Under the pieces are notes generated by a model. It saw nothing but the letters and a program-made list of their open reading frames with translations. It searched no databases and had not been told where the DNA came from. A stretch of 64,000 nucleotides of DNA from a virus (Duplodnaviria; Caudoviricetes): positions 1 through 64,000 of IMG/VR virus record IMGVR_UViG_3300020577_006613. One strand, given 5' to 3'. Below are positions 233 through 55,375 of the stretch, in pieces. Position 1 is the stretch's first letter, and each line of letters starts with the position of its first letter. The position numbers and the translations under genes are program-made.

Positions 233-261
233 TTGATTTGTGGAAATTTCGTACCTAAAGT
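233..261 (+). promoter_or_regulatory. Putative sigma70-like promoter for the RNase P RNA
   Basis: TTGATT-N17-TAAAGT directly upstream of the P1 helix. Confidence 0.45.
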
Positions 262-263
262 AG

Positions 264-485
264 AATGAACAACAACAGTCGATCCATCGCTCTACCCCGC
301 AAGGGATGAGAGGAAGTTCGCGACTGCCCCACCTACCGTTGGAGGCCCTAAACCAGCCGTTCGTACAACGTAAGCAGCAACTCAAACAGTCTGAGAGTGT
401 CGGTGGCTCTATGAGGACGGGTTGAGGCCATTAGAGAAATGATGGAATAGAACAGAATCGCGGCTACGGACTGTTGTTGTTCATT
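264..485 (+). ncRNA. rnpB: Minimal RNase P RNA (catalytic domain, specificity domain almost absent)
   Basis: Perfect 17-bp P1 (264-280/469-485); P2 TCCATC/GATGGA; P3 with GCAA loop; CR-I GAGGAAGTTCGCGA pairs with CR-V AACAGAATCGCGGCT as P4 with bulged U; P5 CTGC/GCAG; P6 CCACC/GGTGG; CR-IV TAGAGAAAT. Confidence 0.88.
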
Positions 486-5496: not shown

Positions 5497-5570
5497 GCCT
5501 TTGTAGTTCAACGGTAGAACCGGGGTCTCTAAAACTCTGAGCGTTGCAGGTTCGAATCCTGTCAAAGGCG
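5497..5570 (+). tRNA. Amber suppressor tRNA (anticodon CUA), copy 1
   Basis: Acceptor GCCTTTG/CAAAGGC, D arm, anticodon arm GGGGT-CTCTAAA-ACTCT (CTA at 5529-5531), T arm GCAGG-TTCGAAT-CCTGT, discriminator G. Confidence 0.9.
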
Positions 5571-52977: not shown

Positions 52978-53099
52978 GCGTCTGTAGTGTAATGGTAGCA
53001 CACTAAAACATCCTGACCACTAACTTACCGAACAGGTCGACCGGAAAGGGTTATCTCTATTACCAAGAGGTAGTTTGGGTTCGAATCCCAACGGGCGCT
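52978..53099 (+). ncRNA. tRNA-framed, circularly permuted YrlA-like RNA
   Basis: Acceptor GCGTCTG/CGGGCGC, D arm, T arm TTGGG-TTCGAAT-CCCAA; the anticodon position holds AACAT-TGACC..GGTCGA-GGTTA and a short hairpin. Confidence 0.7.
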
Positions 53100-53677: not shown

Positions 53678-55375
53678 ATGGCAAATTACGGTAAGCACGC
53701 AGCGTCCATCAGCAAGAAGACCCCAAAGGCTACGCCTCAGACTGTGCAGACCCCTGGTACTGTGCAGAACAACGCAGGCGGCTATGTCTATGAGATTGAT
53801 AAGTGGGAGCGCCTTGATCGTTTCCTGATCTTGGGTACGGATGGCGCAACCTACTACTGCTCAGAGCGCAAGATGTCGCTCGATAACTCCAAGAACGTCC
53901 TTGAGTGCATCAAGGAGGACGGTATTCGTACCGTTAACCGCATCGTTGAGATCAGCGATGATGGTCGCGCTCCAAAGAATGATCCTGCTCTCTTTGCGCT
54001 TGCGCTCTGCGCTTCGCATGGTGATGATGACACTCGTAAGCTCGCGCTGAACCTTCTCCCGAAGGTTGCTCGTATCGGTACTCACTTGTTCCAGTTCTCG
54101 CACTTCATTGACGGTCAGCGTGGTTGGGGTTCCGGCCTCCGCAACGCTATCGCCAACTGGTACAACGGAATGAAGCCTGAGCGCCTTGCTCTTCAGGTTG
54201 TTAAGTATCCGCAGCGTACTGCTGAGGAGGGTAACGCGAAGTCTTCCTGGTCGCACGATGACTTGCTCCGCAAGTCTCACGTTCGAGGCGATGAGCTTCA
54301 CAACCTGATCTATCAGTACGTCACGAAGGAGGGTAAGCTTCCTGACCGTGTTCCTGAGCCTCTTGCTATCCTTGAGGGCGCAAGCCGCATGAAGTCTGCA
54401 AAGACTGAGGGCGATGTTGTTTCCTTGATCGAGAAGTATGAGCTTCCGCATGAGCTTGTTCCGAAGGAGTTCGGCAACAGCGAAGCCGTATGGCGCGCTC
54501 TCCTGCCGCACATGCCTATCACGGCAACTATGCGCACGTTGAACCGTCTTACGTCTTACGGCGTCCTCAAGCCGCTTTCGAGCGATTTGAAGATGGTTGT
54601 TGAGCGTTTGACCAACGTTGAGAATATCAAGAAGGGCCGCGTTCACCCGCTGGCAGTTCTCGGTGCGCTCAAGACGTACTCCAACGGTCGTGGTGTCAAG
54701 GGTAGTTTGACCTGGTCTCCTTTGTCGCAGATTACTGATGCACTTGACGATATGCTCTACCTCGCGTTCGATAACATCGAGCCGACTGGTAAGAACATCT
54801 TGATCGGTCTTGACGTTTCTGGTTCTATGGAGAGCGGAAACATTGGTGGTCTTGACTTCGTTACGCCTCGCGAGGCATCTGCTGTCATGGCGATGGTTAC
54901 GGCGCGTAGCGAGAAGAACTACCATATCATCGGATTCACTGCCGGTGGCTGGACCGCAAGTGGTCAGCACTCTCGTTCAAGTTGGGGTGGCGGTGGCTAC
55001 GGAGTTACCGACATTCACATCAGCCCTCGCGAGCGTCTGGATGCTGTCTGCAAGAAGATCGGCGCTCTCCCGATGGGAGGTACGGACTGTGCATTGCCTG
55101 TTCTCTACGCAATGGAGAAGGGTCTGCATGTTGACGCCTTCATTACCTACACCGACAACGAGACCTGGGCAGGCGCTATCAAGCCGCATGAGGCTCTGGT
55201 ACAGTACCGTAATCAGCGCAACGCTCAGGCGAAGCTGATTGCAGTTGGTATGACTGCAACCGAGTACAGCATTGCTGACTCGAACGATGCTGGTTCCATG
55301 AACTTCGTTGGGTTCGATTCGTCGGCTCCGGCGCTCATGGCAGACTTCATTCGTAAGCCGCTTCGCTCTCGCTAA
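53678..55375 (+). CDS. rsr: Ro60/Rsr RNA-binding protein (TROVE plus vWA)
   Basis: NNAGGY, RFLILGT.G..YY, GRAP, GWG..LR, VKY.QR, SH.DLLR..H, LDVSGSM, GGTDC.LP, TDNETW, GFD. Confidence 0.93.
   Translation: MANYGKHAASISKKTPKATPQTVQTPGTVQNNAGGYVYEIDKWERLDRFLILGTDGATYYCSERKMSLDNSKNVLECIKEDGIRTVNRIVEISDDGRAPKNDPALFALALCASHGDDDTRKLALNLLPKVARIGTHLFQFSHFIDGQRGWGSGLRNAIANWYNGMKPERLALQVVKYPQRTAEEGNAKSSWSHDDLLRKSHVRGDELHNLIYQYVTKEGKLPDRVPEPLAILEGASRMKSAKTEGDVVSLIEKYELPHELVPKEFGNSEAVWRALLPHMPITATMRTLNRLTSYGVLKPLSSDLKMVVERLTNVENIKKGRVHPLAVLGALKTYSNGRGVKGSLTWSPLSQITDALDDMLYLAFDNIEPTGKNILIGLDVSGSMESGNIGGLDFVTPREASAVMAMVTARSEKNYHIIGFTAGGWTASGQHSRSSWGGGGYGVTDIHISPRERLDAVCKKIGALPMGGTDCALPVLYAMEKGLHVDAFITYTDNETWAGAIKPHEALVQYRNQRNAQAKLIAVGMTATEYSIADSNDAGSMNFVGFDSSAPALMADFIRKPLRSR

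Follow-up and report, generated by a model that had tools for sequence, protein, structure and literature searches.

A miniature type-A RNase P RNA reduced to its catalytic domain and a short stub, encoded by a jumbo phage

The window analyzed here is a stretch of 64,000 nucleotides forming the first 64 kb of a viral contig of 100,328 bp. Since this contig is rated about 20% complete, the source phage has a genome of roughly 500 kb and is a jumbo phage; a close relative (L040) is represented by a 494-kb genome that is 98% complete. On the plus strand, a miniature RNase P RNA gene (264..485; 222 nt, 51% G+C) was recognized from its sequence, its fold and covariation. It occupies an intergenic gap between an ORF that stops at 230 and another located at 506-778, and the neighbouring long genes all lie on the plus strand. 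The upstream ORF has no Pfam match and is, from a reading of its peptide, presumably glutamine-synthetase-like. A putative sigma70-like promoter (233..261, plus strand) consists of TTGATT, a 17-nt spacer and TAAAGT; it agrees with the consensus at 8/12 positions, under the 9/12 threshold of the promoter scanner, and the predicted transcription start (around 267-268) corresponds to the 5' end of P1. At the equivalent position, L040 carries the promoter TTGACT-17-TACAAT (10/12). The two phages share 96% identity over the core (281-467), as against 30-76% over P1 and the flanks.

The fold was read along the plus strand. P1 (264-280 with 469-485) has 17 bp and can be extended by a G281-C467 pair, and P2 (283-288 with 441-446) varies in sequence among relatives with 6-7 pairs kept. 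Then come the universal G289, the P3 hairpin (290-312) and J3/4 (GA, 313-314). P4 is formed by 315-323 (AGUUCGCGA) and 458-465 (UCGCGGCU) and comprises 8 pairs with U318 bulged. The pairs are disposed 3+5 around U318, as they are around E. coli U69, and we take U318 to be the equivalent of this catalytic metal ligand. P5 (324-327 with 374-377, 4 bp) is followed by the P6 pseudoknot (329-333 with 402-406) and by a 40-nt stub (334-373) in the place of the S-domain. The region 378..428 begins with J5/15 (CAA, in which A379 corresponds to A248) and contains P15 (381-383 with 424-426, 3 bp), P16 (389-392 with 415-418), P17 (about 394-397 with 407-410) and the L15 GGU (420-422), whose predicted pairing partner is the tRNA 3' RCCA. 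Finally, 429..466 includes a 3-nt remnant at the P18 position (429-431), J18/2 (CR-IV, 432-440) and J2/4 (CR-V), which places 10 nt between the 3' strands of P2 and P4 and is followed by A466. The register with E. coli is, on our assignment, exact: G310-C319 corresponds to G61-C70, C378/A379/A380 to C247/A248/A249 and G420-U422 to G292-U294. The E. coli M1 numbering was cross-checked against Rfam alignments and PMC11143913. On folding, 264-485 gave z = -2.64, and none of 200 shuffled sequences reached an equal stability.

The elements that a previous sequence-only reading had fitted into 222 nt, namely P1-P6, P15-P17 and the bulged U, could thus all be read directly, as could its description of some 40 nt in place of the S-domain, with CR-II/CR-III and P18 absent. 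Its remark that P4 is altered on both strands relative to the usual bacterial sequence was also confirmed; positions 67/68 depart from the bacterial AAGU consensus. The term "ultra-minimal" proved overstated, many relatives being shorter (about 190-200 nt). At the P18 position, where 264-485 has 3 nt, about a third of the relatives carry an insert of 16-67 nt. The presence at 264-485 of an RNase P catalytic domain of bacterial type A, matching E. coli M1 RNA in register, was confirmed.

When RNase P models were searched, relatives matched RF00010 but 264-485 itself did not match, so that the expectation of a model hit held for the family only. For 264-485, no RNase P match was obtained with Rfam cmscan at the gathering threshold or at E<=10, nor in single-model searches with RF00010, RF00011, RF00373 and RF02357. 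By contrast, L243 was aligned end to end with RF00010 (31.5 bits, E 1.7e-8), the S-domain being skipped, and single-model searches gave 40-42 bits for L243 and L244. A member in Stenotrophomonas phage DLP6 reached 54.7 bits (E 3.3e-17); the scores of L243, L244 and the DLP6 member all lie under the RF00010 cut-off of 100 bits. Conversely, R1, a family model built from the miniature RNAs, retrieved phage P RNAs that are Rfam-positive: L227, L197 and L148 scored 81, 44 and 37 bits with R1, and 114, 268 and 247 bits with RF00010, respectively. As judged by these sequence models, the homology between the miniature RNAs and real RNase P RNA holds in both directions. Since R1 finds Rfam-positive P RNAs as well as miniatures, large phages carry full-length, intermediate and miniature forms. 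Full-length or partly reduced type-A RNAs were found in viral contigs at L197:1111-1452, L148:12670-13008 and L227:4936-5200, and further in L187, L191, L232, L233 and L236; the contigs concerned include ones of 279 kb and 372 kb.

In order to collect relatives, IMG/VR was scanned with patterns built around one or the other strand of P4, around P15/L15 alone, or around several of these together. At least 140 distinct cores were obtained, of which at least 133 are reduced and at least 7 full-length or intermediate. The patterns imposed motifs, and the conservation of CAA and of GGU (131 of the 133 listed relatives for the L15 GGU) is therefore partly selected; the compensatory changes were not selected. 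Covariation was analyzed on 45 relatives under 88% identity, in a plain MAFFT alignment, for 35 proposed pairs. These pairs were formed in 90.9% of cells, as against 64.4% after shuffling and 30-45% in slid registers, and double-sided changes were observed in 30 of the 35 pairs (437 such changes in total). In the same 45 sequences, P4 was paired at 99.7% with double changes in 6 of its 8 pairs, as the sequence-only reading would have it; P5 and P15 were both paired at 100%, with 3/4 and 3/3 pairs covarying, respectively. About 40 different P4 strand pairs, all with pairing kept, were present among the matches listed. In the set found by P15/L15, that is, without using P4, 56 of the 58 aligned sequences had a U as the bulged base, and there was almost no variation in CR-IV and CR-V. 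For P6, at least 5 Watson-Crick pairs could be formed in 90% of 124 members, compared with 14% when the strands were swapped between members.

The fold, the covarying P4 and the homology of the relatives thus support the identification as an S-domain-reduced RNase P RNA, and a phage origin is supported by the occurrence of at least 133 distinct relatives in phage tRNA regions. In 185,579 prokaryotic species genomes, an exact-match pattern gave 6 stretches, all in metagenome bins. One of them (L245) failed the family model and the other five lie amid tRNA genes; one of these five adjoins phage-family genes, and the genome of another has a normal P RNA elsewhere. These five are probably mis-binned phage contigs, a statement made of the group and not as proof for each case. 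The DLP6 member lies at about 105774-106022 of KU682439, the genome of a cultured phage, where it is unannotated; the paper describing that genome makes no mention of RNase P. A literature search whose coverage lay outside subscription journals returned no description of a phage-encoded RNase P RNA of any size.

Variants and inserts were observed among the relatives. In L178, L199 and L230, P4 takes the form AAUUGGUGC with GUCCAAUU, and the unpaired U is seemingly shifted toward the P5 end. In some relatives, including L205 and L216, whole structured RNAs sit inside the stub hairpin on stems of 10-23 bp. The stub insert of L161:353-652(-) and L185:368-669(+) is a tmRNA-like tRNA domain (GGGGC...CCACCA, G3-U70), and that of L183:7466-7716(-) is a tRNA-like RNA (Rfam, 42.8 bits). 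The stub inserts of L165 and L169 contain GACGAAAC, which is reminiscent of a hammerhead core. If stub inserts were processed, the RNase P RNA could end up in two pieces. ORFs of 136-206 aa were found inside the miniature gene in L111:4065-4941(+), L097, L076:2703-3481(-) and L272:8627-9279(-); by eye, their products look like GIY-YIG or HNH homing endonucleases. Insertions occur at the P18 position, in the P5-P6 linker and in the P16/P17 arm; the core halves are intact, no intron is evident, and the homing-endonuclease-like inserts, in the three cases seen, are confined to peripheral positions. At L271:3215-3523(-), a 3'-truncated, degenerate miniature P RNA lies directly upstream of an intact and different one, which suggests replacement by recombination. 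In addition, a GOLLD RNA (L203:5662-6168) lies near a miniature P RNA, and a c-di-GMP-I-GGC riboswitch (L248:417-497) 140 nt downstream of another.

The stub of 264-485 begins with a 3x3 internal loop, followed by a 5-bp helix (337-341 with 366-370), a conserved 2x7 internal loop (GA at 342-343 opposite GUUCGUA at 359-365) and a capped hairpin of 3 bp (344-358). It lacks the CR-II/CR-III T-loops, P12, P13 and P14. A 4-5 bp helix, an internal loop and a hairpin could be parsed in 101 of the 133 listed relatives, the internal loop reading G(G/A)AG opposite CGUU-N2/3-AC and the hairpin loop ranging from 3 to 130 nt. In the Rfam type-A alignment, the 3' strand of P11 is GGU-AA-AC, in which the two A's are bulged and C235 is paired to G125; A232/A233 touch the tRNA T-stem (PMC11143913, PMC9433436). 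The commonest variant of this strand in the miniature RNAs is CGUU-AA-AC, the C of which pairs with an invariant-looking G. The spacing from the P11-like strand to C247 is 13 nt in 44 of the 101 parsed members, including 264-485, and is then equal to that of the full-length RNAs; a second subgroup (n=34) has a spacing of 19 nt. Only some half to two-thirds of the members have A at the bulged positions, where 264-485 reads CGU.

On the strength of the strand sequence, the C-G pair and the 13-nt spacing shared with full-length RNAs, the stub is probably, with moderate confidence, a P7/P10 spacer bearing a P11-like bulge, from which the elbow-stacking T-loops have been removed. We lean slightly toward the view that this bulge would contact the tRNA T-stem rather than stack on the elbow. 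As a refinement of the relaxed T-loop recognition proposed earlier, the conserved stub indicates that substrate recognition is probably reduced, rather than absent. A P8 reading of the hairpin was also considered. An L8-like CUAA loop occurs in about 15% of members; since most of the stub loops are freely variable and can accommodate 130-nt inserts, the P11 reading was preferred. Another possible reading is a single T-loop, as modelled for archaeal type T (PMC13462272), but stub positions 2 and 4 fit the T-loop consensus poorly.

The family is tied to tRNA genes. Such genes are present in 109 of 132 listed loci, within 500 nt in 83 of them, and the nearest one is on the same strand as the miniature RNA in 109/109. 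The gene at 264-485 is exceptional in its distance from tRNA genes: of the 8 tRNA or tRNA-like genes in the window, the closest starts at 5497, about 5 kb downstream, and the contig offers just 263 nt upstream. The suggestion that the RNA is suited to atypical tRNAs was not borne out, the tRNA neighbours of the miniature RNAs being canonical (TTCRA T-loops in 87%, D-loop GG in 92%), with similar values near full-length phage P RNAs (canonical T-loop 89%, D-loop GG 94%) and a standard GUUCRA T-loop in all 8 genes of the window. None of the tRNA genes of the window encodes CCA, and these tRNAs would need a PF01743-type protein before pairing with GGU; L040 has a PF01743 protein (CCA-adding/poly-A polymerase family). 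The segment 5497-5648 contains a tandem pair of tRNAs, both with the amber anticodon CUA, which are separated by a few nucleotides, CCA not being encoded; the remaining tRNAs of the window are of Glu and Arg types. A recoded genetic code, which the CUA anticodons might evoke, was rejected: TAG terminates 14 long plus-strand ORFs of the contig. The tRNA-like RNA 52978-53099 has a structured insert of about 50 nt at the anticodon-arm position and is called only as a tRNA by Rfam (40.3 bits). One ORF downstream of it lies a TROVE/Ro60 gene (53678-55375, E 2.6e-30), a location in keeping with a Y-like RNA that might serve as an additional RNase P substrate. This RNA is probably a YrlA-like Y RNA.

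Possible partners of the RNA were searched for. RnpA (PF00825) was found neither in the contig nor in 5 carrier genomes, 2 of which are at least 98% complete, and HARP (PF08745) was not found in these 5 genomes. A scan of neighbouring ORFs for the RNR motif gave no credible RnpA-like candidate, and no recurring RnpA-like neighbour gene was seen. Because no RnpA or HARP gene was found in the five carrier genomes, the borrowing of host RnpA is plausible. The carrier genomes tested yielded no second, full-length P RNA. Recurrence of a protein family beside the RNA reaches at most 17 of the 133 listed loci, and the most frequent families have the look of homing endonucleases or of enzymes common in phages. 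A 162-aa family recurring less than 3 kb from the RNA in 10 loci (e.g. L183) presumably resembles DUF458/YkuK RNase H-like proteins. In L075, L081, L086, L109 and L166, and likewise in L182, L243, L252 and L286, a Bacteroidota-type promoter motif, TAnnTTTG, immediately precedes P1, at a distance of 50-63 nt from the P4 anchor; this suggests independent transcription in phages of that phylum.

Taken as a whole, we consider it probable that 264-485 encodes an active ribozyme that would borrow host RnpA and mature the 5' ends of the phage's own tRNAs. The RNA would descend from bacterial type A, minus P8/P9, P12-P14 and the two interleaved T-loops, and would be transcribed from its own upstream promoter. 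It folds into the standard catalytic core, as the covariation shows, and host RnpA would bind the retained P2/P3/P15/CR-IV/CR-V surface. The L15 GGU would anchor the 3' RCCA of the pre-tRNA, and the 5' leader would be cleaved by a two-metal mechanism with the metals at P4/U318, as the conservation of these elements suggests. The P11-like bulge of the stub, at its canonical distance from the core, would touch the T-stem. The task of the RNA would be an extra, phage-controlled 5' maturation of phage tRNAs and tRNA-like RNAs during infection. Activity is argued for by the covariation of every core helix, by a P6 that beats its control and by active-site and substrate-contact residues that are near-invariant; the tRNA-maturing role is argued for by the link of the family to tRNA genes on the same strand. 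Efficient catalysis requires the bulged U (PMC3488217). Furthermore, the isolated C-domain of E. coli finds the correct cleavage site by itself, is accelerated about 190-fold by C5, and needs P6 and not P18 (PMC5839562), which matches the pattern kept in 264-485.

Some observations point the other way. Against the main reading stand the departure at P4 67/68, the equivalent of A233, which is not fixed (A in about half of the members), and the lack of a tRNA adjoining 264-485. As the isolated E. coli C-domain is about 100-500-fold weaker than the full-length RNA (PMC5839562), it is not evident what would be gained over the host enzyme. The tRNA-maturation role has against it that phage tRNAs look canonical and that host RNase P can process phage tRNAs, as in the T4 case (PMC11143913). 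In a more specific form, which we put forward tentatively, the RNA would be an active ribozyme of about 200 nt that has discarded its interleaved T-loop ruler, kept a P11-like T-stem contact at a fixed distance and competes for host RnpA, thus providing the phage with a tRNA-maturing enzyme of its own whose substrate range is unlike that of the host enzyme.

Among the alternatives, an active ribozyme with shifted targets is unlikely. In the manner of RNase MRP, it would have been selected for hairpin-RCCA substrates rather than for tRNA maturation, the candidates being, under this same reading, the Y-like RNA, tmRNA-like RNAs, polycistronic spacers or host RNAs. The loss of CR-II/CR-III, which act as a ruler (PMC3488217), would agree with this, as would the tRNA-like or tmRNA-like inserts in the stub hairpin of some relatives and the position of 52978-53099 near the Ro60/TROVE gene, RNase P being able to cut YrlA of M. 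smegmatis (PMC4201824). However, the linkage of the family with clusters of ordinary tRNAs is tight, TROVE was found in only 2 of 5 carrier genomes, and the L15 GGU together with the conserved stub points to tRNA-shaped substrates. We regard as still less probable that a phage protein of unrelated fold (compare Rpp29, modelled in type T) or a separate S-domain RNA supplies the elbow contact. The conserved internal loop of the stub could be a protein site, type T holds its stub by a protein (PMC13462272), and bimolecular S+C ribozymes are reported to be functional in vitro (PMC6783828). Against such a cofactor stand the RnpA and HARP searches of the carrier genomes and the absence of any widely recurring neighbour family; in addition, a search of the 100-kb contig, which covers some 20% of the genome, revealed no linked pair of CR-II/CR-III motifs, and the complete relatives gave no S-domain match, an unlinked gene being possible.

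The chances are slight that the RNA is a non-catalytic decoy, sequestering host RnpA or pre-tRNAs and thereby throttling host tRNA maturation. Apart from the P15/L15 contacts, the rest of the RnpA-binding surface also lies within the retained domain, as seen in the T. maritima structure. The P15/L15 protein contacts (PMC3488217) are retained as well, and an RNA deprived of its S-domain would make a weak enzyme. A decoy, though, would not need the bulged U, the P4 geometry, A248 and P6, all of which are conserved, and phages with dozens of pre-tRNAs of their own need RNase P activity and not its inhibition. Sequestration of RnpA, raised in the sequence-only reading, is unlikely as the main role because the active site is conserved. 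Lastly, a decaying fragment of a captured host rnpB or a chance fold, which the missing Rfam match of 264-485 might suggest, has a negligible probability and is refuted by the compensatory changes in at least 133 diverse members, the core being moreover kept between 264-485 and L040 while the flanks diverge.

RNase P RNA, which trims the front (5' end) of new tRNAs, is a classic trans-acting ribozyme and has been treated as cellular; its catalytic domain alone is often proposed as the primordial form. Standard Rfam annotation misses a phage family of at least 133 members. These natural variants lacking the S-domain, with their deep covariation, show what selection allows the ribozyme to lose, and whether the catalytic domain alone can serve in vivo and what the S-domain ruler adds become testable, experiments being feasible with the cultured carrier DLP6. 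The tRNA toolkit of jumbo phages would be extended by 5' processing. If the more specific form of the active-ribozyme reading is true, a virus-encoded, natural C-domain-plus-stub RNase P, an undescribed architecture, would operate in bacterial cells. What is new here is the reading of the stub in P11 register, the negative test of atypical tRNAs and the conserved promoter position in 264-485 and L040.

As regards known systems, the RNA has the bulged-U P4 flanked by CR-I/CR-V, and P1, P2, P3, P5, P15 and CR-IV in canonical order and spacing, that characterize the RNase P RNA superfamily (clan CL00002). With type A (RF00010; E. coli M1 RNA/rnpB, 377 nt), it shares P1-P6, P15-P17, the P4 and P6 pseudoknots and, in nucleotide register, the bulged U, the J5/15 CAA, the L15 GGU, CR-I, CR-IV and CR-V; the P6 pseudoknot, P16/P17 and the L15 GGU are those that define the type. 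In contrast to type A, it is viral and 222 nt long, without an S-domain P8-P14 (P8/P9 and P12-P14 with CR-II/CR-III) and without P18 and its GNRA loop; its P15 has 3 bp and its P4 is rewired on both strands. Type B (RF00011; P5.1/P15.1, no P6/P16/P17) was rejected, P6, P16 and P17 being present and no model match obtained.

The parallel drawn previously with archaeal type T is sound as to the reduction of the S-domain to one stem, the absence of P18 and a P15 that is 1 bp short. Type T RNAs are about 210 nt long, have a type-A-like C-domain with P6 and are missed by standard models; their S-domain is one stem with a bulged loop, P18 is lacking and P15 is 1 bp short (PMC3579882, PMC13462272). 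However, P2 has 6-7 bp in the miniature RNAs and 3 bp in type T, J5/15 is CAA (3 nt) instead of a 2-nt linker, P5 has 4 bp, the promoter is of the bacterial kind, and by sequence the RNA is tied to bacterial type A. Membership of type T was rejected on P2, on the linker and on the lack of an RF02357 match, and the resemblance is read as convergent reduction.

The engineered E. coli C-domain ribozyme Eco CP RPR, delP18 (PMC5839562) retains the same set of elements, a C-domain with P6 in which P18 is dispensable; correct cleavage and stimulation by C5 are properties of that construct. The miniature RNA differs from it in being natural and in keeping a conserved stub of 34-40 nt that the construct lacks. 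Closest in setting are the full-length or intermediate phage type-A RNAs of L197, L148 and L227, which also occur in viral contigs with nearby tRNA genes and share the 3-bp P15 and the L15 sequence with the miniature RNAs. They differ in that CR-II/CR-III are present and the S-domain is wholly or largely preserved, and may plausibly serve as stand-ins for the ancestral state.
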